Assembly (NCBI GenBank): GCA_951406725.2
Contig: OX597816.1
Coordinates: forward strand, 69,130,001 to 69,194,000
DNA: 64,000 nucleotides
Reading direction: 5' to 3'
Source: Octopus vulgaris
Taxonomy: Eukaryota
Numbering within the stretch: the first letter of the stretch is position 1; each line of letters begins with the position of its first letter. Under the pieces are notes generated by a model. The model ran no database searches. It was given only the letters and a program-made list of their open reading frames with translations, and was not told the DNA's origin. Of the stretch, positions 11,769 through 34,296 are shown in pieces. The position numbers were made by a program, and so were the translations under genes.

Positions 11769-12984
11769 GTATATGCAGTTACAAGCACACACATACTTAA
11801 TAGTTATTCTGTCGGCAAAACGTCGATCTCTATACAAAACGATAAAGAAGACGACCCTGGAAACGGTCTTCGAACTGCCTGTGTTCTGCTGATATGAAAT
11901 CAGTGTATATTACTAAGGTTCCATAGTTATTCCACAGCTTTAATCACAGATGGTTTCGATAGCTGAACGTCTCGTATATGTATATTCAAACATTAATGCA
12001 TGATAGATATCCAATTGAATTTGCACAGTCTCGATTGACATTTTCAGAGCATCTGATTCAATTTGGAAGAAAGCATTATAGAATACCAAATTTCAATAGA
12101 CATTATCTCATTCTATAACATTCTATACATAGCAATTTGACAACCTTTTCGAGACGCATGGTTCTTACCTTTGTCTATTGAATATTACTAATTCAGAACT
12201 GCTGCTGTAATCTCATCACTATTATATTTTGCTTACAAATGAAATTAATGTAAATACAGCAGTACGTTGGTATTGTTAGTAAAAAGGCGACACATATGAT
12301 TATCTTTGTTTGTTTTTGGATATTCTGCTATACTGAACACATTCCTGATTAACGAAAACAAAGGTATTATTAATGAAGCCGATATTGAATTTAGATTCCC
12401 TGTTTAAAAGTCTGTATTATTAAGAAAAATTAAATGTATATGATGGAAATTGAAGTCATCCACTTCGACGCTGAAATTTTAAAGGCAAATTAATTAGAAA
12501 TCTAATCAATTCCATATCCAATACTATATATTAAGCGCTATTTGCGATTAAGACTGCTCGCTGACGAGGTATCACGAGGCCGAAAGATCTTTAAACTCAA
12601 CGCTCCCTTTCATAAAATCATAGATTTTCTATTGTTTAATTTCGATATGAAGGTTTTTTTTCATTTGCTAAATATTTTGCTATTACAAGTAGATTTGCTT
12701 TGTCATAAATACTTACCATATTAATTACGTTAGTCCCTACCTATTTTAACTCTCCAGATAGGGACATGCGGCATGTATTTCAACATCACAAAAAAGAATA
12801 AATTTTGGGGGATATATTGACATGCATTTGAGATATTCTTCTCTTCCAACGAGTTAAAAAAAAAAAAAAGACGTCGTAGCATTTGGTAACAGTTCAGAAT
12901 CGAGAAATTTACAGCAAATAAGTGTAAATACATTTTAAACACTTCAAGTGTATTTTGTTTCATCAATATACAGACAGCGAAATG

Positions 12985-13305
12985 CGGCGAGCTGGCAGAA
13001 ACGTTAGCACGCCGGGCGAAATGCTTCGCGGAATTTCGTCTGCCGTTACGTTCTGATTTCAAATTCTGCTGAGGTCGACTTTGTCTGTCCTTGTTTGTCC
13101 CCTCTATGTTTAGTCCCTTGTGGGTAATAAAGAAATAAAAAACGTTAGCACGCAGGGTGAATTGCATAAAGTGTTTCGTCTGTCTTTACATTCTGAGTTC
13201 AAATCCCACTGAGGTCGGCTTTGCCTTTCATCCTTTCAGAGGGCCGATAAATTAAGTACCAGTTGCGTACTGGGAACGGTCCTTGTGCCTAGAGTAGAAA
13301 AGAAT
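12985..13305 (+). mobile_element. SINE family B (tRNA-derived, gcctttcatcctttcggggtcgataaa central domain), nested dimer
   Basis: Head ggcgagctggcagaaacgttagc, B-box gttcaaat. Tail gtctgtccttgtttgtcc...aaagaaata, then restart at aacgttagcac. Confidence 0.85.
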
Positions 13306-13311
13306 ATACAG

Positions 13312-13314
<3 letters not shown>

Positions 13315-13351
<37 letters not shown>

Positions 13352-13408
13352 ATATATATATATATGTATGTATATATATATATGTATGTATATATATATA
13401 TATGTATG

Positions 13409-13479
<71 letters not shown>

Positions 13480-13655
13480 ATGTGTTTGTGTTTGGCTGTG
13501 TGTGTGTATGTGTTTGTGTTTGGCTGTGTGTGTGTGTGTGTGTTTGTGCTGTGTGTGTGTGTGTGTTTGTGTTTGGCTGTGTGTGTGTGTGTGTTTGTGT
13601 TTGTGCTTGTGTGTGTGTGTGTTTGTGTTTGGCTGTGTGTATGTATGTATGTTTC
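13315..13655. repeat. (TA)n/(TATG)n followed by patterned (GT)n with recurring ttggct
   Basis: Direct inspection. Confidence 0.95.
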
Positions 13656-13869
13656 TCTGTATGGGTGAAGTTAAAAATTGGTATCTTCAAGTCTATTCTA
13701 TGAAAAGTTATGTCTATATTTAGTCTTTCTTTTTTAAACTGGAAATCCTTTAGGGAACTAAGTATATAATAACAGATTGTACTATTCACGTAATTTGATA
13801 TCATTGCCTTCTCTATGCTGCTCGCAAATATTGCTTCCACAAAACGTTCAAGTTCTATAATATGCATTT

Positions 13870-15260
13870 CAAATTTTTCACCAGCAATTTCGGGGGACAG
13901 AATAAGTCAATCGCATCGAACCTGGCACTTAATTTATTGACTGCAAAAACGCTAAAAAGTGAAGGTCTCCTCAGCAGAACTTGAGACTAGAACGTAAGAA
14001 CGGACGAAATGCCGGCAAGTATTTTTCCCGGTGTGCTGACGATTCCGCCATATCACCACCTTATTCAATTCTCTAATATTAGACAAAATCATTAACTTAA
14101 GACTGACAACATGTCTGAATTTTAAATCATTTGAGCGAAACGGATAACTCACCATTTTCTACGATGTAACTAAATGTTTCCTATGCTTGTACGTTTGATC
14201 AACGTTCTATTTGACAACTGAATGATGTTGATGATTTAAAGGGTTGTACATTTATTTTCCAATTTGGTACCCAGAATTAACGCTTTCAGTTAAGGCGTTA
14301 GGAGATGCGTTTAACACGTTTAACACTCACTCGCATAAGTAAGAAAATGTTAGAATCGCGAAGTCAGGCTGACATTTACAAGTTCGCTTACGCTAACTAG
14401 TCATTTGAACAAATATGTATTCTCTGATATATCAAACACCTCGAATTTTGGTATTTCCACGATGTTTGGCTCGAAGAAATGATAAATAACTATGACTAGA
14501 TAAAAGAAAGTATGTGATACGAACACAAAGTTGTCATAATACGGTGTATCTATGTTGCACGTGTCCGGCTGTGCTTTACATTAACACTATAAGAATTATT
14601 TCTATCTCCGAGCAAACATTTCTATTGTTTAATGGAAATGTGTTTAATCTTTTTCTGTTTTTTTTTTTTTTTTTGCTATTTATACTATACCTGTTCACAC
14701 ACATTTCGAAATAACACTAAGTCTATCATAAAAGTTGGCTCGTTTCAATATAGGAGATGATGAAATTGGCAAAATCGATGCAACAGCAGACAAAAATACC
14801 ATACTGCATTTAATTAGGTCCTTTCACATTTTGAGTTCAATTCCTACCGGAGTAGACCTTGCATTTCAAAATATTCAGATCGGAAAATTACTAACCAGAG
14901 AGCGCGACAGGTGCTTATTTCATCGACCCCGAAATGATAAAAGACAAAACTGACCGCGGCAGAATTCAAACGGGCCAAACTGTCACTAAAGATGTTGCCC
15001 GGTATATTAACGGTTCTACCACTGCGTCGTGTGCCAATATTCCTTTCTACTATAGGCACTATTCCTGAGATTTGGTTGGAGAATGGAAGCTAGTCGATTA
15101 CATCGACCCCAGTGCTTGACTGGTATTATTTTATCGGCCCCAGAATGATACAAGTAAAAGTTTCCTTCGGCCGAATTTGAACTCCGAATCTAAAATCGGG
15201 CCAAAATGTTAAGCTTTTGTTCGGTATATAAACGATTCTGGCCCCCTCGCTGCCTTGCTG
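13870..15260. mobile_element. Several diverged SINE B copies (13870-14050 -, ~14800-15020, 15045-15257 -)
   Basis: Recurrent catcgacccc, gaatttgaact and acgattc motifs. Confidence 0.65.
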
Positions 15261-16090
15261 TGTGTTAATTATTAAAAATTAATTATGAATTTCTTTGGCA
15301 TAATACAGTAATACTGTTTGTTGGTTTGCATTTGGATTCTGAATAAATTATCTCTAATTATGGTGCAGATGCTGTTGAAAGAATATTTGTAGGATACTTG
15401 TGTAGTGGTTGTATAAACCCCTCTAACATATTCGCTTCATATTAAAATCGTTGTATCCACTTTAATATAACCACTTTGCTGTTATTCCTTTTACCAAATT
15501 CGATGAGATGAGAAGTAAAATTAAAACCTGTAATATTTGAAATTATATCCTAATGGGCTGTTACTAATTGCCTCAAATAATTTAGAGCAATTTCCTCATC
15601 AACTTATATTTTATTTGTCACTGGTTACGCCTTCCATCCAATGAGTTATATCAATATAATTACAGTAGGAACAATAATTGGGTGCAGGATTATTACTCAT
15701 TAGGAAAGAGATCATATGACAGTTTGCTGTGTTTCAAGTTGCATTTACTAGCTGGATCAGTGGCATAAACAAGCATTTACTATTCAATATTTGATGTGAA
15801 TTAAATTTCAAACAAGTATTAATTTAACGCAAATCGTTGATTAATATCAACAAGAGATACTGATGCATCTTTTAATAACACTGTCTAACTCAGTTCGAAT
15901 TCCAAAAAGACAATATTGAGATTTGGCATGAGATTAACGGTTTGATTAAGCAAGCCGATAGACGAAACTTGTCGTTCCATTCATCCTGGTCTCTACTTAA
16001 AATGTAACTTAAGTCAGACCATTAGTAAATGTTCAATTGATAGGAATATAAAATATTACCAACCCTGTAAAATTTACAGCTTTATACAAC

Positions 16091-16303
16091 CGAGGGGTGC
16101 TGACAAGGTTCTGACTTTGGGTAAAAAGAAAAAATGCAGGTGGATCAGTTAATTGTGATTCTGTTCAATCTTCTCAGATTCGTACGCTAATTGCAGCGCC
16201 CCTTCAAATTTTCTAAGCCCTGCAAAATAACTCGGTAAGTTAGACCTCCCACCGGGAATTTTTGCGACAACCTTAAAGCCAGGAACTTTTCAGTAGCCCC
16301 ATG
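16091..16303. mobile_element. mariner-derived MITE
   Basis: Imperfect TIRs ggggtgctgacaaggttctgacttt / aaagccaggaacttttcagtagcccc. Confidence 0.65.
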
Positions 16304-16484
16304 TATGTTGCCCCAACATATTTTCTATGTAAATAAATTCAACCAGCGTACAAACTTATGCATTTATTATGACTATTTAAGTTATAAAAACTGATATCTA
16401 AATTCTAATACTTAACTCATATTAGCGCAGAACTATTCACGGTGGAAACTCTAGACATTAAACTGTTAACGAAAATAAGTAATT

Positions 16485-17000
16485 TATTATTATTACTGAA
16501 TGAGAGAGCAGAGCATGCTATCAAAGTGACACTGATGCTTCTCGTCCGCAATGCTTGCTTCTGAGTAATCATAAGCATTCCCTCTATTCAGGCCACTTTT
16601 TTCAGTCAATTCCGTTCGTTCTCTTTTCGAAATACGTCTGTAGATGCAAAGAATTTGCTTTGTATATGTTTGTTACGGAAGGTCCTATCCTTTTTAAGCT
16701 GTACGCCTTACTTATTCTGCCCTTCATCAAGCATATTTGATATACATTTTTACCGATTTAATTAACTTCCCATTGCTTTTGTGGCTGTACTATTTGAGAT
16801 TTACTATCTTCATGTCTACACAATCTTCAGCACTTATTAAACATCATTCTCCTTTATTCCTGTTCACAAACAGCCAATAGACATCTCCTTGAGGATGAAA
16901 TAACCTATACCTCGTTAATAATTTTTAGATCATTCTTCGTCCATTTGCCTATACCACCTCTATACCATATTATGCTTAAGGCCCTAGAGGTATTAGCGCA
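16485..17000 (-). pseudogene. R4/Dong-clade non-LTR retrotransposon fragment ending in (TAA)n
   Basis: Minus translation ALSIIWYRGGIGKWTKNDL..KLLTRYRLFHPQGDVYWLFVNRNKGE*CLISAEDCVD...EGMLMITQKQALRTRSI. Matches the R4-type HPxADVxRLYxxRxxGGRGL and EGxLxAAQDQALxT motifs. Confidence 0.75.
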
Positions 17001-17209
17001 GATAATATTAATAACATTCAGTTCCGATAATATTAATAATATTTAGTTTTGGTTTCAAGAGTTCTCTCACTCTACGCAAATATTCCCAACATAAATTTCG
17101 TTTCTTCTCGTTGGCTTTGATGCTTGTATCCTTTTGTCAATCTCTTTCACTTCCTCGTCCGTTGACAATTTTATTCTTTCAGAATATTTTATGTCATCAT
17201 AATCATCAT

Positions 17210-17328
17210 TATTATATTATTATTATTATCAGAAGTATTATCCGACAATTGATAGTTTCAGGCCAATTTGGACTACATCACCTGCGTCACCCGCGTGTTG
17301 CTGAGATGTGCTCAGCATTATGTTCATG

Positions 17329-17364
<36 letters not shown>

Positions 17365-17477
17365 TAGAATAACAACGAAAGAAAATTGATTAAACACATT
17401 TCCATAACACGAAGGTAAATACGCAATAAGAACAATGCGATGCGGATTTTAATAAATACAGATTGACTTTGTTCATC
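17210..17477. repeat. Two-module (ATT)n-associated repeat, copy 2
   Basis: Alignable to 11205-11495 across both modules. Confidence 0.85.
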
Positions 17478-19762
17478 CAAATGAAGAATATTTCGACAGA
17501 ATGTCTGCCTTTCTTGGGTAAAAATGAAAAGCATGAAAAATAAACAGAAATACAGGAATTAGGAATATTGTACAATTCAATAAACACAGTCAATCTCTAT
17601 TTATTACAAATTTTATCACGCTCTTCTTATTGTGTATTGTAATAGTAATAGTAATAATAATAATTATTATTGTTGTTGTTTTCGTCGTCGTCACTATAGC
17701 TTAAATTTTAGATTATCAATTTGAGACTCATTGCTTTAGGTACGTTGACGCAAATTTAAATAATTATTAAACACTTCGGCAAATAATTTGATATGAGCTC
17801 CATAATTTGAAACAAACGTGATATCAATATATCATGTGAAGGGAATTTAGTCATTCGATTTCAAATGATTTATCAATTAAGATGGCTCCTTGGATATATG
17901 AATTTAAAGATTGATGTAGATAACTAGATAGTTCCCGGAATCAATCTTAGAGCGTAATTTTTCATGTATGGGAGTGACCTTCTGCAGCCAAATCTCAAAT
18001 CACATTCTACCCCTTTGATTAAGAAAAAATGGCGTATTAGACAGTGTAATCTTACATGACATCTAAAACGGCTGTTTGCTTAATCATAGTTGACCTTGGA
18101 AGTAAACAACAATAATGACAACAGCGACAACAAACAGCATAATTTAATCCATAAACATGAAGACTGACATTTATGCACATTTTACAATTGCCTTGATGTA
18201 AATGACAAAATATGGCTACCAGAGAGGATCAAACGTGGATCATTTAGACGATCTTCAACACTGCAAATATAAATTAAAGTTCAATGAGGTTAATGGCAAT
18301 AATTATCATTTATTCAAAATCTTTATTTGACTGTGTCAGTGAGTTTTCATATAAGGCTGCATTTTAAATCGATCTATTGACAATTATGCACACATATACA
18401 TCATTGATATGATATTAGCTATGCATCTAGTTGTAGACTAACCTCATTAGAGAAAGATTTGTCGTGAATTACAAACCTAACACGTCCTTAAGCCAACGTA
18501 ATCACAGGCCAATACAAATCACTGCAATAAAAGCATTTATATTATTCCGAGGAACATAAGTCAATTTGCATCTAAGCTTTATAATCTTTTAATGCAATAC
18601 TAATGTTTGCCATGGATCAGATCAACTGGAAGTTTACAGATATCTTATTGCTAAATTATGGATATAATAGTGGTGTCGATAAAACAAAGATGGATATGTG
18701 TAAGAGAAATTTCATAAAACTACGATGACGTACAATTAAGCATATCATTAGAGGCTAAAATCATAATGCAAACAGCATCAGGTGGTTTAGTTTTATTCAC
18801 CAATAACACATAATTTGCACTTCAGTTAAGCTAGATTATTCAGGATTTCTTTCCTCATGTTTACCATTTAATGTATCAATCGATTAAAATATAAATGAGA
18901 TAATTATTTTCCTGGGTCATTTTATCATGGTTGAGGCAGATACCAGTAATGATCCACTTTATATCTTGTTAAATAAATAATTATAGCTAATGGATTCTAC
19001 AAATGAATGAGTAATATAGGTTCCAATCAAATATCAAATTGAAATTATTCAAATTCGTCTACATGTCAGATAAATCTTGTATAATTGCCACTGATTCAAT
19101 TTATAATCAATCTTGTTTATCACCTGTATATTGTAAACAGAAGCTTATACAAATATATAAATACAAACGTGAGTAAGCAAATAAACAAAAAATGAATACA
19201 CACACACATAGTTGCCTTCGGCAAGATATTTCATTAACGCTAATGTTTTTCTTTTAATTCACTAAAACGGTTTTATTTTCAGATCACTATCCTACCACTT
19301 AGCTCTATTTTCTTCATCCAAAATGCGTGGGTAATTTTTCGTGTCACAGTAAGTGTAAGGAAAAACAACCCACTTTATACAACTATACGCTACTTTTGGC
19401 AAACCTGATTACAACATTGAGTTGGAAGAAAAGCAGTGAAGTTGATATTATCAATGATTGTGATCAGTTTGTTAAAGAACACCTCGCACAAATTGAATCA
19501 GTAGCACTTGAGTCGGTTATTGCACTGTGAAGGAATTACTACGAGAGAACAAATAAATGCGACTGAGATCTAACGATATCATAGGAACTAATATTTAAAA
19601 TGGATTTGGTACTTTTAAAATTGCATGGATGAACTATGGGGAAAAGCGATGAATGAATAATGCATTCAATAACTACGAGACATAACTAAGTGTTAGGCTA
19701 ACTATCAAAGTTGATTAAACGACTATCCGATTCAAATTGAGGTACATGGTCTCAAATTTTAA

Positions 19763-19972
19763 TTAACCCTTTAGTATTCATATTACTCTAATGTAATGTT
19801 TAGTTATTCATATTTTCTTGAATTAATTAAGCATTATCTTATACTTTTGTAATTGTATATTTTTAGAATGATTTTGTAGTGTAGGTGTGACAGGCTGGAT
19901 ATGGCTAGTTTGAACATAAAATGGGTGCAGTATTTTGGCTGGATATGACTGGTTTAAATATTCAGGAGTTAA
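19763..19972. mobile_element. piggyBac-type (TTAA) MITE
   Basis: TTAA-ccctttagtatt ... aatattcaggag-TTAA, degenerate TIRs, internal ggctggatatg repeat. Confidence 0.5.
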
Positions 19973-21457
19973 AGTCTTTCTCGATCCTAGCACTTGACTG
20001 GAAATTTATTTTATTTAGCCTGGGTTGAGGATTGAAATGCAAAGCCGACATCCGCGGATTTGAACTTAGGACGTAAAGCTGGAAGATCATAGCAAAGCTG
20101 CTTTTATTATAAGTCTTAACATAGGGGACTAAAGAGAAATATAAAAGTAAACTGCAAAAATCTGAGAAGTGTTGAGAACATTTCTTCTAGTATTATTGCA
20201 AGTAAGACTAAAGTTTCTAATGGAATAATACTTTGGTTGTCTTCGGAGATTTTGGACAACAGAACTCTCATCCATCCACAAAACTCAATCGTATAATGAT
20301 ACCTCAACACCATTGTTGGGACTAGCATTGAATGGCCAGGCCACTACGATTAAAGAAAGATCACCCAAAGTGAACAATGTGACAGCTGAAATGCTATGCT
20401 CTAGTCAGACATTTCGAGTTGACCGCATAAGTAAAATTTGATCGGCTGAAGTTCTTTGGAAACCCATTAGATAAATGTTCCTGTTTGGGGCTGCAGACTT
20501 AGTCCTCCGCTAAGATCAAAATATCATTATCTGCTTCTTGCTATCTTCAGTGGAATTCATTCTGTTGCAGGCATCAATCCAAGTCACCCTCTGAAACAAT
20601 TTTACTCTTCCTCCCAAAATTTCCGGAGGTCATCCTAAAGACGTTATAGAGGCAATATTAAGCGTATTAATCAACGCCTTCCGTGTTACTTCCTGCGGTT
20701 TATAAAATAAAATCCTCATTACAAAATGATAGCGATTTCGAAAATAAAATTCATTTAGTGTCGAGTTTAATAAGACATGCATCTATTTTAAAAACAAAGC
20801 AAGCTTAAAATACAAATACGTAAGTAGAGTTGTTAGTGTTAACGCAGGAGTTGGTTAAAATAATTGTAAGGAAATTAATCAATGATACGGCTGGCTGCAC
20901 ATACATATTCATGCATTCAAATGCGTGTATGATTATAAATGTGTGTGGACTCATATATGGAAGCTAGCTCATGTTATACTAAGCAAGGAATTGACAAACA
21001 TTTAAATTCGTTTACTAACTGGAGCAAAATGAATACTACTAGCCTTAGGGAACTAAGTTGAGCATTAAAGATATAAATAAAAGTATCTTCGATTGCCTGG
21101 GAAATGAATTTTTAATTTTGGTGTCCACCAACATAATTCTTGTCAGCGGCTTTTAATGCCGAGTGTTAAGCTCAACTTCCTTTGTCAATCTTATAAGAAA
21201 AACCTTTGAAATCTTGTACTGATTTTCAATACGGTAAACCTGTACATAACAAATTAAAAGAGTGGCTTATTGTCAATTAGAACCTGAAAGCAAAATCAAT
21301 AGCGGTGACGAAAGTGAAGGAGGGTGCTGACTAGCACCAATTATGCTGAAATAAAAGTTAAATTGACTCTAAAGCTACTAAAGCACTATACTTAATGATT
21401 GACAAAGGGAGGTAAGTCATTACCGTACATAACAGTATTGCGATTTCGAATTTTGGT

Positions 21458-21501
<44 letters not shown>

Positions 21502-21905
21502 CTTTTAAGGTCTTATAAACACAAACATATATATCTTTTAAACGTTGTGAAATCAAATAAATCTCCTAGTCCATTATGTTGGCTACAGTCAAATGGCGAT
21601 GACTGGTGAACCACTTTTGGGTGGGTTTCATCGAACTCTACCAATACATTGTAGGATAAATATATTAATATAACAATAATCCTTTGCTAGAATTTAGAAA
21701 TATTTTAATGCATCGCTACGCGCATTTCCACAGGTCACATGTCTCCTAGGATCACATCTCGGTTGAGAACAAGGGTTCAAGATATATCATACCTGATGCT
21801 TACCAGGTCTATACTCAGCATCGTAATTTACTACCGAATATCGGGGGAATTGTCAGTCGTATGGACTCTAGTATTGCAATGTTGGAATTAAAAATGCTAT
21901 TCCAA

Positions 21906-22560
21906 CGCGGTGAGCTGGCAGAATCGTTAGCACGCCGGACGAAATGCTTAGCGGTATTTCTTCTGCCGTTACATTCTGAGTTCAAATCCCGCCGAGGTCG
22001 AATTTGCCTTTCATTCTTTCGGGGTCGATTAAATAAGTACCAGTTATACACTGGGGTCGATATAATCGACTTAATCCGTTTGCTTGTCCTTGTTTGTCCT
22101 CTCTGTGTTTAGCCCCTTGTGGGTAGTAAAGAAATAGTTATTTCGGCCGTCGCCACGTTCTGAGTTCAAATTCCGCCGAAGTCGACTTTGCCTTTCATCC
22201 TTTCGATAAATTAAGTACCAGTAATACACTGGAGTCGATATAACCATCTTGTCTCCTCCCTTTCCTCCTTTCGGGGCCAATTAAATAAGTACCAGTTACG
22301 CACTGGGGTCGATATAATCGACTTAATCCGTTCGTCTGTCCTTGTTTGTTCTCTCTGTGTATAGCCCCTTGTGGGTAGTAAAGAAATAGGTATTTCGGCC
22401 GTCTCCACGTTCTGAGTTCAAATTCCGCCGAAATCGACTTTGCCTTTCATCATTTCAGGGTCGATAAATTAAGTACCAGTAATACACTGGAGTCGATATA
22501 ATCATCTTGTCTCCTCCCGCCTAAATTTCGGGCATTGTGCCTATAGGAAAAACGATTATT
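21906..22560 (+). mobile_element. Tandem/nested SINE B array
   Basis: Repeated ttctgagttcaaat-ccgccga-gtcgactttgcctttcat units. Twice joined by tail ...agccccttgtgggtagtaaagaaata restarting at g(g/t)tatttcg. Confidence 0.9.
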
Positions 22561-22899
22561 AATGTTGCTCTACTTTCATTATTGGGAAATTAATCGAAAT
22601 TGTCATAATTTCCTTGAAAGTCAAATGAATATTTAAGATATATAACTAAGCGTTTCAATTTTCATCATAACATTTTCGAACACATTTTAATCATTGAATT
22701 ATTCTTCTTGATGTAATTTCATCGTTCAACAAATACCCTTCTTTTTTAAATCCTTTCTTACCTTTTGCATACCTCCTTCCTTCATGCACATTCACCTTGT
22801 GTATTCTTCCATTTCTCTCTCTGCATCTCTTCCTATCGATCGAACTATTTCTCTCATTCACGCTAGTGTTATTTGCGTTTTATCAATCAGTCAAGATCT

Positions 22900-23482
22900 C
22901 TTCGGGCGAAATTCTTATCGGTATTTCGTCCGTCTTCATGTTCTGAGTTTAAATACATTCCGCCGACATCGACTTCGCCTTTCATCCTTTCGGCGTCGAT
23001 ACAATAAGTACCATTTGAGTACTGGATTCGAAGTAATCCATTTACCCTTCCCCATCAACATTTTGGCCTTGTGCCAAAATTTGAAATCAATATTAAGTCA
23101 TGTTAAGGCAGTGAGCTAGCAGAATCGTTAACATGCCGGGCAACAGGAATATCGGCATTTCGTACGTCTTTGCGTTCTGAGCTCAAATTCTACAGAGGTT
23201 GACTTGGAATTTCATCCCTTTCAGAGTTGATAAAATAAGTACCAGCCGAAGACTGGGCCTGTTGTAATCTCGAAGTAGTCAAGCTTGTTTCAAAATTTGA
23301 AATCCATATTAAGTAACTGTAAGGCGGCGAGCTGACAGAACCGTTAGCAAGCCCGGCTTAATGCTTAGCGGTATTTCGGCCTTCTTTGTGTTTTGCGTTC
23401 AAATTCTGCCGAAAAAGTCTTTAATTTCCATCCTTTCGGGGTCTAAGTATTTCTGTGCCCGTGCCAAAACTTGAAACCAATG
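22900..23482 (+). mobile_element. Three head-to-tail diverged SINE B copies
   Basis: Each ends aaa(a)tttgaaa(t/c)caat. Heads at ~23107 and ~23322. Confidence 0.8.
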
Positions 23483-23913
23483 TTAAATGAGAGTGAGGTA
23501 TGGAAATACATAATGGCCAGCAAAATATTTAAACATTGAGGAACATATAAAATGCATGCATCAAAATGTTTTAAAACAATGAGATATTATCAGAAAATTG
23601 ATTGCTATTACCTGATTTAATATTGATATGTATGTAATCTCAACATTGTTTAAATTTCGAGATCTTGTACCATAGTCTGAAAACTAAGTCGATATGTGAA
23701 ACAAAAGCATATAGTTAACTGGATCACCTCAAATTACTGTATCCCTACGGTAAGAAAATGTATGGACGATTTTGATGAGAACTGAAATCAGAATGTATTA
23801 GAGAAAGTAGTTTCTTCTCTCTACTCATTAATCTTCAGATATATTTTCCTGGTCCTTAATGAGATCCTCAAATAAACATTTTCTTTAATATACTAAGATA
23901 GGAGTTACTAAAT

Positions 23914-23951
23914 AGATCTCAGGGATTTTTCTAGAAAAATCCCTGAGATCT
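23914..23951. repeat. Perfect 38 bp palindrome
   Basis: agatctcagggatttttct|agaaaaatccctgagatct. Confidence 0.95.
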
Positions 23952-24894
23952 GTTTCAAATCATTCTTAAAATAAGGCTCTAACTTTTTATTCGATTATTT
24001 ATTAGTTTAGTAAACTACAATGAACGCTTCAGCAAACCATCACGGAATGGTAATGAGTGAAAAGTATATGGTGATAGGTTCGTACTCTCAAAATTGACAA
24101 TATTTGGCTCATGCGATCAGTTTCCTGACTTTGATAAAAGTTTTCAAGTTTTCTAATAACACGAAATAAAAGCAATAAGTACAGCCGGTTTCATAAGCTG
24201 ATTCTCTTATCTGTTTAGGTCTAATATATTACATTTCCCCCTCTTTCTTTGAGTTTGCAATACATATTTGCCGATTTGTTAATTGTGCATCTATCTTCAA
24301 AATTAATCAGCTGTCTGAGTCGGTAATAAATAAAATATATTTGCAATGACGAATTCTGTCTAACACATTCTAAGGTTAGAGTGATAAGTACACACAGTCA
24401 TCTAGAAAAATAATCATATAGTTTCTTCTTGGATGTAATTTTATATTGACGGAAGATATTTCCTGATGTTAGTGAAAATATTTGACTGATTAATCAAGAT
24501 CTGGTTCAAATAGTTTTCAAGAAAACATTGATTTCTACGATTAATAGAAAGCCACATATTTCCAATAGGTTATAGTTGATTAAACTGACCTCAGTAATTG
24601 ACTGGTACTTTTCCTTTATCGATTCAGGAAAAACGGAATATAATGTCAATCCCGGCGTAATTTGAACTCAGAATGTAAACGATTTTAACTAAATACCCCA
24701 AGGCATTTCGTTATACAGTCTAATGATTCAGTTAATCTATCACCATTAGTTTACTGAAAATATTCAAATCAGGTCGGTCAATTTATGAGCGATTTTATGC
24801 AACATTTACCAAAACTGTGCAAGTGGCAAGAAGACAAAATGAAAGTGAATGAAATAATTCAAGCACAAAATCAGGTAGGAAAATCGTTCCCATA

Positions 24895-25018
24895 TAGACA
24901 CTGCTTTAACTGTGGACACTACTTTAAATATCTTCACTGCATTAAATACAGGCTCTGCTTTAACTAGACACAGCTTTAAATATAAACATAACCTAGACAC
25001 TGTTTTAAATACAGACAC
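24895..25018. repeat. Degenerate ~17-20 bp minisatellite
   Basis: Recurring (a)gacact(g)ctttaa unit, about 6 copies. Confidence 0.7.
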
Positions 25019-26568
25019 ATTTTCGTGCCGATAAACATAGTCTTATATCCTCCGTCAGCTCCTTTTGATATTGTTATAGTTAGTTTTGTGCTTGTAATTG
25101 TAGTTGTTGTGGTTGTTCACTTTCTTCGTCGTCTTCTTATTTGTCCCTTCCTTCTCTCATTCTTTCTTTTGTTTCTTCCTAATATCACCTTCAACTCTTC
25201 GTAATCTTTCTCTTCAACCTATTCCTCGTCCTACTTCTCTTACTTGTTGTTGTTCTTCTTCTTCTTCTTGCATGCTACGTGAGAGATGAGAGTGAAATAA
25301 TATTCTTCTAATTTTTTTTTTCTTATAAATCTTTGCAAATTTCCTCAGTTGCTAAAGTGTCATGCAGATTGGTATGTGGTAATCGTTCCGAATCTCTACT
25401 TCTTGGAAACGACCCGGCCGAAATCAAACTTTCATTTCGTCGTTTCAAGGACAATAATGAGGTCACAAAACTTCTACTGGAAATGATTCCAGGAGCATTC
25501 TTTTCCTTCACTTTTCTTCCTGTCTGTCTGCCTGTCACCTTTTTTGGATGAAATCGACTGTTCACAGAACTTGAGAAAAATGGGTTTCGGTAAGTTCAGA
25601 AGGGTTCAAATCGTGACCCAAGTACTACTTCCGTATTTGAGGTCGCAAGCCAAGACAGGGTGAGGTAGATATTGCTTCAAATTTTGGCAAAAAGCTATCA
25701 GTTTAATGGGGAAGGGTTAATAGAAAACATCATCTCTCTCTACTTCGTTGGTGCGATATTTTATCTACCCCTAAGGGATGTAAAGCAAAACTGACCATGG
25801 CGGCATTTGAACTCAGAACGTAAAGAGCAGAAGAAATGCCGTGAAGCAATTTGGCCGGCCTGTCAAATATTGCTATATTCTTGACTGTGTTTATGTCTAT
25901 CTCAATAATTAATCTTTCAACGGCTTTACAGAAATGCTTACGCATCATTACATTCCCATCAGTGACAAATGAGATGTGAGACATATTCCTTTACTACGAC
26001 TAATATAATTCACTAAGTCAGTGCAATTCCTTAGATTTATAAATTTCTTCCGCACAATATTATTGTTTTATATAGCCATTATTAGTATCTAATATATTAT
26101 AGTAATACTTTATTTTCATATATTTCATTATATAAGTCTAAATGATCCAGATTAATTCAAGGCTCGCTGTGTGATCTCTTTCTTTGCCGAAAATTCGTAG
26201 TATTTTGAAATGTTATTTTCTTAGACAGTTAGAGGCTTGGATTTATACACAAACTACTTTTTCACCTTCCGTAGATGGTTCTAGATGGTCAGTGTTACGC
26301 GTAGATTAGCTTCGATACTTTGTTCTAGATCTGAGTCTATTAGGTGTCAACTAATAGAAAAAAACTTTCTTGAAACGCGTACCTCTTTATTTAGTCTTCT
26401 CCTTTTTTTTATATATAGCTTTCGTTGCATGAGTATGATGATGCCATACCGAAGGACCCTCTGAAACGATTTACTCGATCAAATCAATTTCGGTTCTTAT
26501 CTTATATCTGGTACAATTCGTGTAGAGTTCTTTTTGTCGGCTAGCTTCTTACTACAAAGCTACGCCTC

Positions 26569-26611
<43 letters not shown>

Positions 26612-26699
26612 ATGTATGTATGTATGTATGTATGTATCTCGTCTTCTAAATGTTTTACGTTCTTGTCCCAGTTTGTATTTTTCTACATATAATATATAT

Positions 26700-26908
26700 A
26701 CTCTTTTACTTGTTTCAGTCATTTGACTGTGGCCATGCTGGAGCACCACCTTTAGTCGAGCAAATTGACCACAGAACTTATTCTTTGTAGGCCTAGTACT
26801 TATTCTATCGGTCTCTTTTGCCGAACCGCTAAGTTACGGGACGTAAACACACCAGCATCGGTTATCAAGCGATGTTGGGGGGGGGGGGGACAAAAACACA
26901 CACACACC

Positions 26909-26935
<27 letters not shown>
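26700..26935 (-). mobile_element. SINE A 3' half
   Basis: ctcttttacttgtttcagtcatttgactgtggccatgctggagcacc... up to the internal CA/TA tract. Confidence 0.9.
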
Positions 26936-26940
<5 letters not shown>

Positions 26941-27120
26941 GTTTTTCATCCGTCTTCCCTTCTCTGGATCTTTTCTTTTCCTATGTTTCTGACGAAGAGC
27001 TCCGCTCGAATCGTTAAACCCTCCTTCTTCCCTTCCTTCCTGAGCGTCCAATAATACTATATTTGTTCCACGTCCTCACGTTGTTGTGTTTTCTCTTTGT
27101 GTTTTCATGTTTGGATTAAC
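26941..27120 (+). mobile_element. Short hammerhead-bearing repeat (copy of 5680-5855)
   Basis: gttt-CTGACGA-agagctccgctc-GAAT-CGTT-aaac at 26985-27019. Perfect stem I, one core substitution. Confidence 0.75.
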
Positions 27121-27651
27121 TTAGATAGATAAATAGTTTCATTTCATGTTTTAGAGTTTAAACTGTAATTCGTTTATAAACTATAGAACACGATATAAAA
27201 CTATAAATACTTATATGCCAACATGGATAGATTTATCTTAGAGTTCTAGATTGTATAGTCAATTTCCATCATGTCTATTTTTTGCTACCCTGTTTTGTAC
27301 CAGTCTGAATCCGTTACCTACTGGACACACCATCGGACAATAGTCTTGTTCAGGATGGCTATTAAGCCAGAAATAAGGGGTTACGGCTGTCCTCCTATCT
27401 CCTCGCATTAAACCTAACACATTCTTTAATGGCAAGTCAGTTTGGAATATTATTTCCACTTTTTAAGTAAGGATGGTGATGATTGTCGTTTGTCTAGAAG
27501 ACATTGTATATTCAAGAAATAAAGAATTTATGTTGCGCGTTGTTTAATATGCTAGCACTTGTCATGTTATTGATATACATATCACTGTCAATTTCATCTT
27601 ATTTCTCTTAGCCTATCTATGTATCTATATATATATATATATATATATATG

Positions 27652-27682
<31 letters not shown>

Positions 27683-27899
27683 ATTATATATATATATATA
27701 TATACATATATATATACATACATATATATATCTACCAACTTACCTACATATGTGAACGTGCGTGTGTTTGTGTGTTTGTATGTGTATATATTATGTATGT
27801 ATATGTGTATCCTATGTATGTGTGCGTTTGTCCATATATACAAATATATGCTAATATATTACGCTATACACTTCTAAGAAATTTACATGTATGTATAGC

Positions 27900-28062
27900 C
27901 ACTAAACCAGTTTTTATTTTTCTCCCTCTTTATTTCTGTGTACCATTCTGTCGAAGAGCGTAGGCTCAAAACGTAAAAGGTTTTCTCACTTTGCGAGCGT
28001 TAAAATAATACATTTGTTTGTTGTTTACACATCCGTCTTTGTCTCTTTTTTTGTGTGGATTC

Positions 28063-28066
<4 letters not shown>
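27900..28066 (+). mobile_element. Related hammerhead-bearing repeat, degenerate
   Basis: ccatt-CTGTCGA-agagc gtag gctc-AAAA-CGTA-aaagg at 27943-27980. Downstream gagcgt..aata and cttgt/gtcttt tail shared with 5680, 26941 and 38600. Ends at (TA)n. Confidence 0.55.
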
Positions 28067-28105
<39 letters not shown>

Positions 28106-28339
28106 GGGTGTGTGTATGTATATATATTTATAAATGGGGGTGTGTATGTATATATAATATGCATTTATGTATATGCGTGCGTATTTTTGTGTGCATGCGT
28201 GTATCTTCAGGATTATGTTTATGCATATGTGTGAAAGTGACTGTGTATATATGAAATAGTTGTGTTCTAAATATAATGTATCTTCGCCATTATGGGTTAT
28301 AACCCGTGTTCAACGTTCTTTATATATTTTCACATTTTA

Positions 28340-28560
28340 TGGCGGTGACCTGGCAGAAACGATTTCACGCTAGACAAAATGCTTAGCAGTATTTCGTCTG
28401 CCGCAATGTTCTGAGTTCAAATTCCGCCGAAGTCGACTTTGCCTTTCATCCTTTCGAGTTCGATAAATTAAGTACTAGTTGTGTACTGGGGTCGATCTAA
28501 TCGACTGCCCCTTCTCCAAAAATTTCGGGCCTTGTGCCGTCTGGAGAGGAAAAGTATATT
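28340..28560 (+). mobile_element. SINE B, full length
   Basis: ggcggtgacctggcagaaacg...gttcaaattccgccgaagtcgactttgcctttcatcc...gggccttgtgcc. Confidence 0.9.
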
Positions 28561-30007
28561 TTTCACCTTTCTTATTACTTTTCTCTTCTTTTCACCTTTT
28601 ATTTCTCACCATCTGGCTCTCTAAGTTCCTCTCTATCTGTCACTCTGTATGTCTATCGGTGTACCTATGCATCTATATTTAGAGTCTCTTTTTTATTCAC
28701 CGAGTATTTTTTACCTTCCTGTTCTCTCTCCCTCTCTGTTCCACTTTCTTTCTCTATCTGTCTATTTAATTTCTCTCTCTCTCAGACACACACAAACCTA
28801 GAAACATACACAAACATAGAGCGACATGTTTTAAGTATATTCTGTTTACGCCATTGACATGCTTCATAAAATTCTTTCCCTTTGCGGCTATAAACTAAAA
28901 TTAATTAGAGTTTCCATACAGATTTCGATCATAAAAATTTGATCAAAATTTTGGCACATTATAAATTTCGATAAATTTTCAAGAAGTCTCTCAAAAACAA
29001 TTATAAAACTAGGTATGTATTTACTCTGATATGGCTGTGTTGATTAAAAGTGTCCAACATCAGTTGCTTCCCTTTCTAATATAGGTGTAACATTTTAGCA
29101 CTGGGCCAGCAATTTCTGGGGAAGAATTAAGTCGATTGCATCGATCCCATTCCTCAACTTTATCGATCCAGAAGGGTGAAAGTCAAAGTCGACATCGGAT
29201 GAATCCGAACACAGGACCGTCGAAATGTCTGTCGCTAAGAATTTTATCTAGCATGCGAACGATTCTGCCTGGTTGCAGTTTTCTATATTCTCCAGTAAGA
29301 ATGACATTGCATTTAGTTCTTTCGTAAACACTTCTCTCTTATTCCCATTTCAAACATCTTATGACATAGGTTTACAAATTTGACAGTACCATGGTCAAAT
29401 TTCTGTAGGTAATATTGAAATTAGAATTCCTAGAATTCTTACATTCATTTATACTGTGCCTCTCACTAGATTAATTTAGTCGATCAAATCGGCAACAATA
29501 ACGATTATTTTTAAAGCCTCGTGCTTATTTTGTCTTTTGGATTTTGCGAAACTGTAAAGCTACGGAGCTGCAGTTATGTAAACATAGGCAAACTGTGCGT
29601 TGAAGTGTCAGAGACAAACACAAACGTATCAGTCGCATTCGCATGCACGTAAGCAGCAAGCTTTCGCACAGTCGTCCTCTTTGAAGATGATTGAGAAGGC
29701 ACTGATAGTCAGGCCATAATTGGAAATGAAACTTACCAGACATCCCTCCAATATGAAGTGACCATGAAACTGACCACGAAATCATATTTACGAAGCGAAC
29801 TTCTTAATCGTCCTACCTATCTATACCTGTACAATGAAATGTGATATACTTTAAAACTTTCTGCCGAGTTCTTTTTTTTTTTTTTCTAAATATAAAATAT
29901 CGGTTTCCCATATTTATAATAAATCTAAAATTGACTTCCTCCGAAATATTAGAACTATTTCACGTCACTTGTTTTTATATAGTGCAATTAGTTAAGTTTT
30001 AATTAGC

Positions 30008-31007
30008 CCATCGAACCACATGGTTCCGGTTTCAGTCCCACAGCGTGGCACAATGGGCAAGTGCCTTCTACTATGGCCTCGGGCCGACCAAAGCCTTGTG
30101 AGTGGATTTCGTCGAGGGAAACTGAAAGAAGCCCGTCGTATGTATGTGTGTTTTTCTGTGTGTTTGTCCCCCCAACATCGCTTGACAACCGATGCTGGTG
30201 TGTTTACGTCCCCGTGACTTAGCGGTTCGGCAAAAGATATCGACAGAAAAAAGTACTTGCCTTTATTTCATGTCCTTTCATTTCTGGTTAGAGGAGATTG
30301 GCACAAACAGTTCTCTATATCATCATTGAATTTTGATATTCTTTATATGCATGCCTCAAGTTGCGCTACTACGACATAAATTTTTATAAGCTTCTTTACT
30401 GCGTATTTGCTTCTGTACAATAGTGTACAGTCTTCGAAACGATACCGGTATGCTTCAGTAGTTTTCTTCTCATCAACAAGATTCTCTGTTCGGCCCTTCT
30501 AAGTAACACCTTAGGCGAATTACCTTTTGCGTTTTGGTTTAGGTTGATTGATACAATGTTGGCGAGATTTACGTCACAGAAACTGCAAAAATCGAAATAT
30601 GCATGAATATTCTTTTATTCTTTTACTGGATTCAATAATTTGACTGCGGTCATGATGGAGCACCACGTTTTCGTCGAGCAAATCGACCCCAGGACTTATT
30701 CTTTATAAGCCTAGTACTTATTCTATTGGTCTCTTTTCGCCGAACCGCTAAGTTACGGGAAGGTAAATACACCAGCATCGGATGCCAAGCGATGTTGGCG
30801 GGGGTGGGGAGAGGAAGACATACATAAATATATATAATACTTATATATTTATATATACTAAATATATAAGTTTTCTTTGTTATTTTGCACATTACTTAAT
30901 CATCGTTATATGTTTTATCTTATATTTAATCTTTCTATAATATGTAATTTTTCTAAATGGTATAATTTAATTTTTCATTATTGAATTGATAAAAGGTGTT
31001 TTTTTTC

Positions 31008-31068
<61 letters not shown>

Positions 31069-31226
31069 GATGGGATTCTTTCAGTTCCCGTCTACCAAAT
31101 CCACTCACAAGGCTTCGGTCGGTCCGAGGCTATAGTAGAAGACACTTACCCAAGGTGCCACGCAGTGGAACTGAACCGGGAATCGTGTGGTTGGTAAACA
31201 AGCTACTTACCACACAGCCTCTCCTG
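30008..31226. mobile_element. SINE A copies: 30008-30260 (+), and 30612-31226 (-) with an AT-rich insert in its internal microsatellite
   Basis: Matches to the 63082-63500 copy. The minus copy is split by ~30830-31010. Confidence 0.85.
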
Positions 31227-31546
31227 TATACGCGTCTATACTTATGTGTGCGTGCGTGTTTCTTATACAGTTCTATGTCGATAGAAGACGAAAGAATAAA
31301 GAAGAAATTTAATAAACCAGTTGTTTCGATTAAAAAGAAAATCAACATTGTTCCATCTGAGTTGCCAAACAGCTACAGCTTTTATTAAGCAACTGCATAA
31401 TCAAATGCGTAAGGCTCTTGTGTATTCACCCGACATAGTTAATTTTCTGAGCTCATTAGAATTTGTTAATCAATCTCGTTTTTATAAGTTTGACGCCATC
31501 GATTATACAATAACCTTTGAAATAATTCGACTGTAGTAAGAATATA

Positions 31547-31790
31547 GTGGAGGCGCGTGGATTAGTGGTTAGGGGGTAGGGTCCATGATCGTACAATTGT
31601 GGTTTAGATTCCTGGATTGGGTGACACGTTGTGTTCTTGAGCAAAACATTTCATTTCACTTTGTTCCAGTCCATTCAGCTGGTAAAAATTGAGTAATCTT
31701 GCGATGGACTGGCGACCAGCCCAAGTGGGTAATTTATACACCATGGGAACCGGCCCTTATGAGTCGGCATCACTCGATAATTTAACAGCC
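31547..31790 (+). mobile_element. SINE family C (tRNA head, ttgtgttcttgagcaa box)
   Basis: ggcgcgtggattagtggttag A-box, ggtttagattcc B-box, 3' gaaccggcccttatgag shared with 60655-60961. Related heads at 32240-32468, 38790-39131, 59436-59635 and 62480-62680 (all minus). Confidence 0.8.
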
Positions 31791-32804
31791 GACCCCACCC
31801 ACTTTTTTTTCTTCTTAAGCTTCAATATAACTTCTTGGAAGGAATTTCATCTCAGAACACGGAATGCAGGGTCTTATACAGCAACACATCTCATACAACA
31901 GCCCCAGAAAATCACCAAATACCCGTCGAAGATGAGTTCATGATTACTCATGTCCGAAAACATGAAAAGCGTGCTTTACCATGGCGTAATTGGGATTCAT
32001 ACACTGGAAGCCGGAATAAATACATCAAGGAATCGCATCCGATGGCCTAACTTCTGTGAGATTTAATAAGCAATTTAGTCAGTCTCAAAATTGCTTTAAA
32101 TTCCATCTCTGCGTATCGCAAATAGGTCATATTGGAACAATAAGTATACAATTGACATTCTCTGGATTAATAACTTACGAATTACTGGGTCGAAGGCATT
32201 GCATATATATATATTGCACATATATATATATATGCGTGCAAGTGTCTGAGCACTCCACAATCACGCGTACCCTTAACGTAGTTCCCGGGAAGCTTCAGCA
32301 TAAATGTGACAAGATTGTAACAAGACCTCGTCTTTGAAGCATAGATACAAGTCATTTTCCCCGAGCTGAGTGGACTGCAGCAACTTGAAATAAAGTGTCT
32401 TGCTCAAGAACACAACACGCCATCGGGATTCGGACTCATATCTTAACCACTAAGTAACACGCCTTCACACACACACATATTCAGTGAAGGTAAACTGTTC
32501 ATACGATATTCGAAGAAAATATATATATAACTCTATTGTAGGGTATGACCAGGAAGGCTACGCTGCCTATCAGATATAATGCTGTATATGTTGCGAAACT
32601 TTCAATATGATAGATATATGATAAGTTAATAAATTTCCCTTAATATCAAATAGTCAATGTTTCAGATATTGCAGATTATATCCTTTAGATTATACGTGAA
32701 GTTTTCGCTTGCCTTCATTTTCATTTCACCATTGTATAGTACTGAATAAAAGCTGATACTACACATTCCCTAAATTTCTAAGCTTCAATAATTTGGATAT
32801 AATC

Positions 32805-34296
32805 ATTTCTATAATAGGAACAAGGTCTGAGATTTTTATGAGGCAAGGTCGGGTCGTTTAAATCGACGCCAGTGTTCAACGAGTACTTATTTTATTCATC
32901 TCAAAATAACGAAAGGTAAAGTCACCTCAGCAAAATTTCCCACTCAAAATGTAAAAGCTGACGAATTGTGGCTAAGCATTTTCACTGGCGTGATAACTAT
33001 CGTACCGGGTCGCCGCCATATATTTTGCATATAATTTATTTTTTTATATACAGCCAGGCCTATTCCCCATTTTTTAGGAGGGAGTAGACACAACAAAACA
33101 CATACAGTAATCATTCCATTCATTTCCCAGCTCAAAGAGGCGAGCCCCGTCCTATGCTCGGACCAAGGCATAGAATGCAAACCCCAATATCAGCAGCGGG
33201 GCCCGACAGTATATACCGGTTTACTTCCGCTGCATCAAAATTGGATATAATATTCTTTTCTACTCATGGCATAAGGCACAACATTTTGGGGGAGGGAATT
33301 AAATCGATTAGATCGACCCCTGTACGCGACTTATACTTAATTTATAAAGTATGAAAGGCAAAGCCGACCTCGGCGGAATTTGAACTCAGAACGTAAAGAC
33401 AGACGAAATACTGCTAAGCATTTCGCCCGGCGTGCTAACGTTTCTTATTTCTTTACTGCCCACAAGGGGCTACACACAGAGGGGACAAACAAGGACAGAC
33501 AAACGGATTAAGTCGATTATATCGACCCCAGTACGTAACTGGTACTTATCTAATCGCCCCCGAAAGGATGAAAGGCAAAGTCGACCATGGCGGAATTTGA
33601 TTTCTGAACGTAACGGCAGACGAAATACCTATTTCTTTACTACCCACAAGAGCTAAACACAGAGAGGACAAACAAGGACAGACACACGGATTAAGTCAAT
33701 TACATCGACCCTAGTGCATAACTGGTACTTATTTAATAGACCCCGAAATGATGAAAAGCAAAGTCGACGTCGGTGGAATTTGAACTCGGAACGTAGCGTC
33801 AGAAGATATACCGTTAAGCATTTCGCCCGGCGCGCTAACAATTCTGCCAGCTCGCCGCCTTGGATATAATATTGATGTAAAAGATGGCGAGCTGACAGAA
33901 TCGTTAACAGGCCGGGCGAAATATTTAGCGGCATTTCGTCAGTCATTACGTTCTAATTTCGACTCTGCCTTCATCATAGAGAGGTCGATGAAATAAGTAC
34001 CAGTTTCGCACTGGATTCGATGTAATTGACTTGCCTCCTTCGACGCAAATTTCAACCCTCGTACCTATAGTAGAAAGGATATAATATTAGTTTCAAATTT
34101 CGGCACAAGGCCATCGATTTCGGGAGAGGGGAAAGGTCAATTGCATCGTCCCCAGTACTGAACTGCTACTTATTTAATTGACCTCGGGAGGATGAAAGTG
34201 AACCTCGGCGGAATTTGAACTCAGAACACCAAAACGGAGGAAATGCTGCTAAGCATGTTTCTCAGTCTACTAAAGATTCTGCCAATTCACCGCCTT
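32805..34296. mobile_element. Dense SINE B cluster: 32805-33018 (-), nested trimer 33255-33859 (-), 33886-34080 (+), 34090-34296 (-)
   Basis: Repeated SINE B heads and cores. ttggatataatatt is duplicated at 33241 and 33860. Confidence 0.9.

Follow-up and report, generated by a model that had tools for sequence, protein, structure and literature searches.

SINE subfamilies of Octopus vulgaris that have essentially one tail in common differ in their landing sequences; landing tracks the SINE subfamily, not the tail. The favoured explanation, held to be reasonably probable, is that the RNA of the tailed subfamily, designated X, reads past its tail into bases of the source locus, and that these bases would serve as an inherited "address" that biases landing through pairing with the nicked DNA.

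Structure of the tailed SINE and its arrays

The X consensus was 231 bp in length, lacked any TTTT run, and ended in ~58 bases of L1/Tx1-group type. X possessed the properties of a SINE in that it was short, dispersed, present in high copy number and flanked by target site duplications (TSDs), and shared its 3′ tail with LINE-group elements (family D and a (TATC)n LINE, see below). Solo copies with TSDs were numerous, and non-low-complexity TSDs were observed in 40 of 102 arrays versus 0 of 300 shuffled pairs. ARAGORN detected no tRNA genes and Rfam gave no tRNA match; the head contained motifs which we take to be A/B-box-like. Position 48 was the first base past the loop of a 13-bp hairpin predicted in the head. 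Covariation for the hairpin predicted in the tail was weak, with a two-sided change in 1 of 4 pairs among 7 sequences.

In the window, that is, the whole 64,000-nt stretch of DNA analysed, three arrays were observed in which X units were joined to SINEs with an ordinary tail (Y), together with other related copies:

12965..12973 (+), outer TSD of array 1, 5′ copy, 9 bp identical to 13303-13311
12984..13137 (+), X unit of array 1, SINE positions 2-95 plus tail, internal part absent
13080..13137 (+), L1/Tx1-type tail of array 1, 51/54 bases as in family D
13138..13311 (+), Y1 SINE (a SINE with an ordinary tail) of array 1, left from position 15 onward, including the 3′ TSD copy
21907..22136 (+), full-length X unit of array 2
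22137..22258 (+), Y-type segment of array 2 from position 48, near copy of 22389-22519 (117 matches in 122 aligned bases)
22259..22388 (+), second X unit of array 2, positions 102-231
22389..22560 (+), terminal ordinary-tail SINE of array 2 from position 48, outer TSD not clear
33860..33873 (-), outer 14-bp TSD of array 3, 5′ copy, identical to 33241-33254
33630..33859 (-), full-length X unit of array 3
33446..33629 (-), internal X unit of array 3, positions 48-231, 184 bp
33241..33445 (-), terminal Y1 SINE of array 3 from position 15, including the 3′ TSD copy
40275..40461 (-), sixth X-type copy, matched over 40289-40459, breaking off early in the tail
53853..53912 (+), distantly related Tx1-like 3′ end (40/51 bases) of a unit inserted in the head of another SINE

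All five tails reported in the initial annotation were present, at nt 13080-13137 (+), 22080-22136 (+), 22332-22388 (+), 33629-33685 (-), and 33446-33502 (-). The restarts that follow them were also located at two head positions as described, namely site 48 at nt 22137, 22389 and 33629 (-), and site 15 at nt 13138, with one substitution, and 33445 (-).

Genome-wide landing of the tails

Exact matches in the genome numbered 61,488 for a 34-mer of the tail and 91,523 for the tail end, and the junctions of the tail with site 48 and site 15 were matched 23,102 and 2,187 times, respectively. Since reversed control patterns had 0 matches, these counts are not due to chance.

Before counting, we removed the duplicate loci L019 and L123(-), the duplicate adjoining a gap at L109, and two LINE tails (L087 and L107). 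A further 30 loci, retrieved with a query extending one base downstream, did not enter the subfamily-landing and 132-array counts and were kept in the 245-tail, divergence-pair, TSD and junction-base counts. Among the 245 sampled tails, 147 were followed by a SINE restart (133 at site 48, 8 at site 15, 5 short, and 1 other) and 98 ran into non-SINE DNA; thus, restarting in a SINE head each time, as first proposed, is true of the window and not of the genome. Among the 132 sampled arrays, landings showed a strong enrichment for positions 48 and 15 of the SINE, as expected of targeting, with 49 ending at one or the other, a share above the threshold of 20% of flanks in one repeat given in PMC4494074. 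Because 79 of the 132 ended in ordinary DNA, many with target duplications of 15-17 bp, X is not confined to SINE heads. Array ends of the GG type were located at SINE site 48 in 41 of 67 cases versus 4.7% expected from the availability of GGTAT (p=2e-37), and outside SINEs the flanks of this type matched the site-48 sequence over 2-16 bases, with a mode of 5. The base at -1 of the landing was C in 15 of 36 cases and G in none.

Age of the units and insertion into older copies

Divergence was 6.1% for terminal Y units versus 3.9% for the adjacent X units, Y being the more diverged in 31 of 41 pairs (p=2.5e-4), after removal of sites polymorphic at ≥15%; unresolved subfamilies could still inflate the Y divergence. 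The terminal Y units had several tail types. Locus L213 contained four tail-only inserts at site 15 with target-private duplications between them, and locus L083 a full unit nested at site 48 with a canonical TSD; at site 48, tail-only nests were rare, with 12 ambiguous matches from 7 loci. Insertion into older SINE copies is supported, and since the terminal SINE is older and TSD-separated nests exist, the arrays do not all derive from one ancestral dimer, the outcome named at the outset as fatal to targeting. The arrays also differed from a fixed dimeric SINE, with units of the same age and constant structure, in having an older terminal unit and 1-5 tailed units. TSD mismatches (11/193 in X-Y arrays, 26/641 in X-ended arrays, and 21/218 in solo Y/Z copies) were not decisive as an age clock, and in an empty-site comparison in contigs of four runs the signal was swamped by paralogues.

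An origin of all arrays by copying of a single ancestral dimer or multimer, or of a few such masters, with no targeting, would fit the TSDs found around whole multi-unit arrays (13/32), the equal age of first and last units in X-only arrays (2.2% versus 2.3%, p=0.83), and the existence of truncated copies bearing junctions. Copying of whole arrays clearly contributes, but as the sole source of the arrays it is decidedly unlikely in view of the age and the several tail types of the terminal Y units, the target-private TSDs separating the L213 inserts, and the lack of shared rare variants in most (40/78) pairs of first and second units.

At least 2 rare variants were common to 19 of 78 X-X neighbour pairs (null 0.3%) and to 5 of 46 X-Y neighbour pairs (null 0.7%), the segment at nt 22137-22258 duplicates 22389-22519, and a 71-bp satellite was found on C16. 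These are in line with arrays produced by exchange between the DNA of SINE copies, through ectopic gene conversion and unequal crossing-over; such an origin is nevertheless very unlikely, as it leaves unexplained both the TSD-separated inserts and the non-SINE TSDs that start with the address of the subfamily. The probable part of DNA-level exchange is to make existing arrays longer, not to start them.

The position of site 48 directly past the loop of the predicted hairpin, and a few full units that follow a partial extension (L008, L163), would suit a reverse transcriptase that halts at hairpin position 48 or 15 and then switches template to a second SINE RNA at its 3′ end, making the array in one reaction. 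This is extremely improbable, because equal ages within an array are predicted, contrary to the older terminal units, and no reason is provided for the address-like starts of non-SINE TSDs.

Origin of the tail and related LINEs

The tail matched the ORF1-only family D of the L1/Tx1 group at 49-51 of 54 bases and the (TATC)n LINE at 38-40 of 47, with alignment scores of 50-92 versus shuffle maxima of 24-34. A derivation of the tail from an L1/Tx1-group 3′ end is supported by these alignments. The likeness to nt 53853-53907 that was noticed initially proved real and modest (40/51 bases, score 41 versus a shuffle maximum of 29); the element at this position, which is located in the head of the other SINE, was rejected as the tail donor, its match being weaker than that of family D.

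Seven stretches of 7 kb upstream of family D yielded no ORF2, the frames beside the tail being ORF1-like only. The related LINE (L353/L087) encoded a 680-aa upstream ORF and the Pfam domains Exo_endo_phos, RVT_1, and zf-RVT, and its best solved match was human L1 ORF2p (8.5e-54, versus 4e-20 for R2). It thus possesses the architecture of Tx1, that is, an ORF1 and an L1-like ORF2 with APE, RT, and a C-terminal zinc motif, "Tx1-like" being used here as a label for architecture and targeting. All 30 of its 3′ ends inspected entered a microsatellite starting with TATC or TATA, and (TATC)n was also observed 5′ of the truncated LINE copies L120 and L110.

LINE tails were absent from site 15 (15 of 15 matches) and from site 48 (by-eye inspection of 30 of 34 and of 27 of 43 matches) in searches that required an AATAAA-type tail and the exact site, which other tail ends would escape. 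Thus, of the initial proposal that the SINE captured the tail of a LINE that targets the SINE itself, the origin in the L1/Tx1 group was upheld, but no LINE targeting site 48 or 15, and hence no partner sharing the target site as in SINEU/Tx1-Mar, was found with these tails at these exact sites.

Landing sequence and body subfamily

ATTA was the landing sequence in 8 of 16 cases for the DEL subfamily versus 0 of 220 (p=6e-11), TAT in 8 of 9 for CAAC versus 17 of 220 (p=5.5e-8), and GG in 19 of 23 for TACC, the three classes having been defined after part of their flanks had been seen. The tail end of DEL is the same as that of the GG lineages. The tail haplotype 219C+221A was followed by AGA even where the flank was not a SINE (9 of 11 cases versus 4 of 35, p=2.9e-5), and by eye 219C was counted 86 times among the first 100 junctions at site 15 versus 7 times among the first 100 at site 48.

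In the model of the initial annotation, a dedicated Tx1 endonuclease would recognize the SINE head, with different LINE partners for the subfamilies. The junctions are precise with a pyrimidine at -1, C at -1 is common to both head sites and the (TATC)n sequence at which the related LINE lands, site-specific Tx1-like elements occur within the genome of O. vulgaris, and a precedent is described for SINEU/Tx1-Mar in PMC4494074. The model is unlikely all the same, given the different landing of subfamilies with the same tail end and the lack of a LINE tail at site 15 or 48 (AATAAA-type tails, exact sites).

A proposed read-through model

According to the read-through explanation favoured here, Pol III would read through the tail, and an L1/Tx1-type ORF2 protein would bind the tail hairpin and nick with a loose preference for a pyrimidine at -1, after which the RNA bases past the tail would pair with the primer. 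Within an older SINE, the 5′ end would mostly be resolved by homology, giving a seamless full head and hence a new source carrying the same address. The address of the main lineage would be position 48 of the SINE's own head and that of the minor lineage position 15; whole arrays would also be copied, and local duplication would lengthen them. RNA extending past the tail is implied by L087, in which 26 restart bases are located ahead of the TSD, and likewise by 5′-truncated copies whose first base is within the tail and which run across the junction (L148, L167, L280, L288, and L289). A test for RNA-templated bases at the junction gave no significant difference: with 13 discordant cases among 49 TSDs, the downstream copy was closer to the address in 7 and the upstream copy in 4 (p=0.55). 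Since heads of nested first units did not significantly exceed solo heads in divergence (5.9% versus 4.7%, p=0.17) and often retained X-type markers (43G in 10 of 51), seamless head replacement stands as a conjectural step; linkage of head markers was too weak for locating the 5′ crossover.

More tentatively, X might be a non-coding retroposon whose RNA guide is both heritable and reprogrammable, in which each landing rewrites the few bases past the tail, and lineages using the same enzyme home to addresses of their own. The lineage addressed to the promoter region of the SINE itself could then have become self-reinforcing, older copies being rebuilt as new sources by the tens of thousands.

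Comparison with known systems

Pairing of RNA with the primer has been shown for human L1 (PMC3649969) and is cited for I, R1Bm, and R2Ol (PMC6007223). Pairing between the RNA 3′ end and the nicked strand that biases site choice, as proposed for X, is a feature of the L1 snap-velcro model (PMC3649969), of RTE-related SINE tails and the first TSD base (PMC6007223), and of the GGUU of SART1 (PMC7265360). In these accounts, the sequence that pairs is poly(A), a tail of simple repeats, or an internal motif of the element, whereas that of X appears to be flank from a former landing site and can point back at X itself.

The closest known parallels to X are the hotspot for Alu within Alu and SINEU/Tx1-Mar. 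Like X, Alu lands in members of its own family, sense-oriented and at a single-nucleotide hotspot (position 133 of Alu), with an L1-type enzyme (Levy et al., PMC2836564). The Alu hotspot lies at the A-rich linker and is explained by poly(A)/poly(T), whereas the matching sequence of X is mixed, subfamily-specific, and located in the promoter-bearing head, and its 5′ join is mostly seamless. SINEU/Tx1-Mar of crocodilians (Kojima 2015, PMC4494074) resembles X in repeat targeting by a SINE, two preferred positions, tandem insertions, and Tx1-type machinery; the SINEU target is a DNA transposon common to its LINE, in contrast to X, for which the target is the SINE itself and no site-sharing LINE was found. 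Dimeric and tandem SINEs and SINE-derived satellites (PMC10702118) share with X the multimers, partial-unit repeats, and local homogenization, and differ in that the truncation point of X is fixed and its terminal unit older. Both of these features point to nesting, and not to a fixed dimer or to duplication by itself.

Implications

Where non-LTR elements land is usually attributed to their endonuclease. Because tens of thousands of natural insertions of X separate the tail from the landing sequence, the share of RNA-DNA pairing in target choice is testable. Since the arrays join units of different age, caution is needed in repeat libraries and in the dating of SINEs. X offers a route from a dispersed SINE to a tandem array, and should insertion be steered by the bases past the tail, the RNA of an L1/Tx1-type enzyme might serve as a means to retarget it.

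Tail restarts and array ends

The initial annotation had described five SINE tails in the window, each followed by a restart inside a SINE head, and all five were present. On a 231-bp consensus built from 127 full units, the restarts corresponded to position 48 (site 48) and position 15 (site 15), the latter presumably lying within the A-box region of the head. Across the 2.8-Gb genome, whose size and SINE types suggest an octopus (227 contigs, with the window on contig C3), exact patterns gave 61,488 matches to a 34-mer of the tail, 91,523 to the tail end, 23,102 to the tail joined to site 48 and 2,187 to the tail joined to site 15, these patterns being of unequal length so that ratios between the counts are rough; reversed control patterns gave 0. 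The arrangement was real and genome-wide, but its first interpretation, capture by the SINE of the tail of a LINE that targets SINE heads, was borne out in part only. Tail-like sequence (window 33446-33700) was also observed in runs X16, X17 and X19, labelled as three other organisms, where depth does not equal copy number.

The window and 140 loci, merged into 131 sequences (1.02 Mb), contained 245 sampled tails of this subfamily (X), 147 followed by a SINE restart and 98 by other DNA. Among 132 array ends, counted only at loci picked without regard to the downstream flank, 41 were at site 48, 8 at site 15, 4 at a short site-48 piece and 79 in non-SINE DNA. Leaving out low-complexity cases, 40 of the 102 arrays that did not restart were flanked by target-site duplications (TSDs), compared with 0/300 shuffled pairs; 19 of the 40 were 15-17 bp long, and in 13 of 32 multi-unit arrays the TSD surrounded the whole array. 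Insertion of X is thus widespread, and a whole array is able to move as a single unit.

In a background of 344 kb of random loci plus the window, only 24 of 516 GGTAT words (4.7%) were intact site-48 heads, as against 41 of 67 GG-type array ends at site 48 (p = 2e-37); the corresponding figures for site 15 were 8 of 17 versus 0.85%. The downstream flanks are therefore enriched for both head sites, as anticipated initially, but this enrichment alone does not separate targeting from dimer inheritance.

Age and nesting of the units

Descent of all arrays from one ancestral dimer, the alternative raised at the outset, was contradicted by the older age of the terminal units and by TSD-separated nests. 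Restarting arrays mostly had as their last unit a SINE with the ordinary tail, of the Y1 type or an older one, and the entire array was often enclosed in an ordinary-tail-type outer TSD (13/33), that of array 3 in the window being a perfect 14 bp. With CpG and polymorphic sites taken out, divergence from the consensus was 2.2-3.5% for X bodies and 5.2-6.4% for Y bodies (the same SINE with the ordinary tail), and in 41 adjacent X-Y pairs Y was more diverged in 31 and less in 8 (p = 2.5e-4). At locus L213, four tail-only inserts occupied site 15 of an old SINE, and the duplications between them carried private bases of the target; L083 held a full unit at site 48 with a 16-bp duplication. Such canonical nests were rare, tail-only inserts at site 48 giving 12 matches at 7 loci, several of them ambiguous. 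Usually the 5' side of a nest was a seamless head, from which we infer, with partial support, homology-directed resolution of that side. Two or more rare variants were common to both members in 5 of 46 X-Y pairs (null 0.7%), but the greater age of nested over solo heads did not reach significance (p = 0.17).

Inside long arrays, rare variants were common to neighbouring internal units in 19 of 78 pairs (null 0.3%), so that local duplication or multimer-RNA copying adds units and lengthens arrays. X units with an internal deletion, the ends joined at short shared motifs (L117, L084, L014 and window 12984-13137), are consistent with reverse transcriptase template jumps. A satellite on contig C16 (G000:C16:12671036-12674988; L359-L364) consisted of ~71-bp units, tail plus first bases of site 48, at six places across about 3.9 kb. 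Closely spaced inverted SINE pairs were seen at window 33886-34293, at L087 4765-5290 and at L123, where two copies in opposite orientation had identical flanks. L008 and L019, about 81 kb apart on contig C7, had identical array and flanks and represent either a segmental duplication or an assembly duplicate.

Origin of the tail

A loose pattern search led to an abundant LINE 3' end, that of the (TATC)n LINE, a full copy of which encoded ORF1 (680 aa) and ORF2 (1,149 aa), the latter possessing APE, RT and zf-RVT domains and being closest, among solved structures, to human L1 ORF2p. Its 3' ends abutted a TATC- or TATA-type microsatellite in 30/30 copies, and its tail had 38-40 of 47 bases in common with the X tail. 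This L1/Tx1-type LINE (L353, L171-L200, L068) was young, with 29,263 first-look candidates, many having open frames of 1,100-1,180 aa, and copies stacked head to tail. The likeness of the X tail to the window element at 53853, noted initially, was real (40/51 bases), but family D, recovered by a negated-pattern search, was closer (49-51/54). Family D (1,294 first-look candidates) had an ORF1-like zinc-knuckle region directly 5' of the 3' tail (L147, L221-L250, L346-L352), no ORF2 was seen upstream of the tail, and its targets were dispersed, mostly starting with GAG. The X haplotype nearest D, 200A, 219C and 221A, was also that tied to AGA starts and site 15; this state is thus likely to be ancestral.

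Two diverged Tx1-like units lay head to tail at window 51928-53912 (+) within the head of SINE A, the other SINE of the window; neither had an ORF2 match, and the final seven bases of each were identical to those of the SINE A head sequence that precedes the site. The Y1 tail (e.g. window 13280-13311) formed a hairpin with a five-base loop identical to that of the X tail, and the two shared 22 of 26 bases, a marginal likeness (score 25 versus shuffle maximum 23). Y1 TSDs mostly started with the last bases of the tail.

The postulated LINE targeting SINE heads was not found. At site 15, 15 of 15 matches to a LINE-type tail end were X copies, and at site 48 the matches inspected (30/34 and 27/43) could be put down to variants of X, to SINE heads, to truncated copies spanning a junction or to chance; the searches required one tail-end type, so that different endings would escape them.

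A probable address derived from the flank

The first bases past the tail varied with SINE lineage. The combination 219C+221A occurred in 13 of 18 tails with AGA starts or site 15 versus 9 of 171 with GG or site 48 (p = 8e-11), and for AGA starts in non-SINE flanks alone the figures were 9/11 versus 4/35. Among 268 tails sorted into body subfamilies, defined after some flanks had been seen, ATTA landing was found in 8/16 of the deletion subfamily DEL (main class, 0/220), TAT landing in 8/9 of CAAC (17/220) and GG landing in 19/23 of TACC (130/220, p = 0.04). The DEL tail end was identical to that of GG lineages, which argues against partner choice by reading of the tail. The X consensus contained no T4 run; some copies held up to 26 restart bases ahead of their TSD, and others started within the tail and then crossed the junction.

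The first five TSD bases matched fully in 36 of 49 cases; in the 13 discordant ones, junction mismatches showed no significant preference for the putative address (the bases presumably read through past the tail; 7 versus 4), which speaks against such an address. At the -1 position of the 36, C occurred 15 times and G not once, a bias that RNA pairing cannot account for and that points to a contribution of endonuclease preference as well. A 13-bp hairpin is predicted within consensus positions 31-60, and site 48 is the base that directly follows its loop; at junctions the pairing partner of site 48 was absent.

Comparison with known elements and proposed model

Self-insertion at a single base is established for Alu, which like X has its own family as target (PMC2836564), as are SINEs targeting repeats (PMC4494074), primer pairing (PMC3649969, PMC6007223, PMC7265360) and tandem SINEs (PMC10702118). 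In octopus, a repeat annotation published in 2026 includes active families of L1-Tx1 and of SINEs, the text consulted containing nothing on targeting (PMC13282606), and the available portions of PMC4824008, PMC3747384, PMC4758252 and PMC5804259 hold no description of X. What appears to be new here is a subfamily-specific address, derived from the flank and pointing to the SINE's own head, for which no prior description was found in the literature titles and abstracts searched.

On balance, we favour landing by a loose nick combined with pairing of the read-through flank; the steps concerning transcription, enzyme identity and repair are those that we infer. A founder X would likely have landed in a SINE head, and its transcripts would then end in head sequence, matching every SINE copy across many bases. 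Seamless repair would retain the full promoter, so that nests may turn into new sources.
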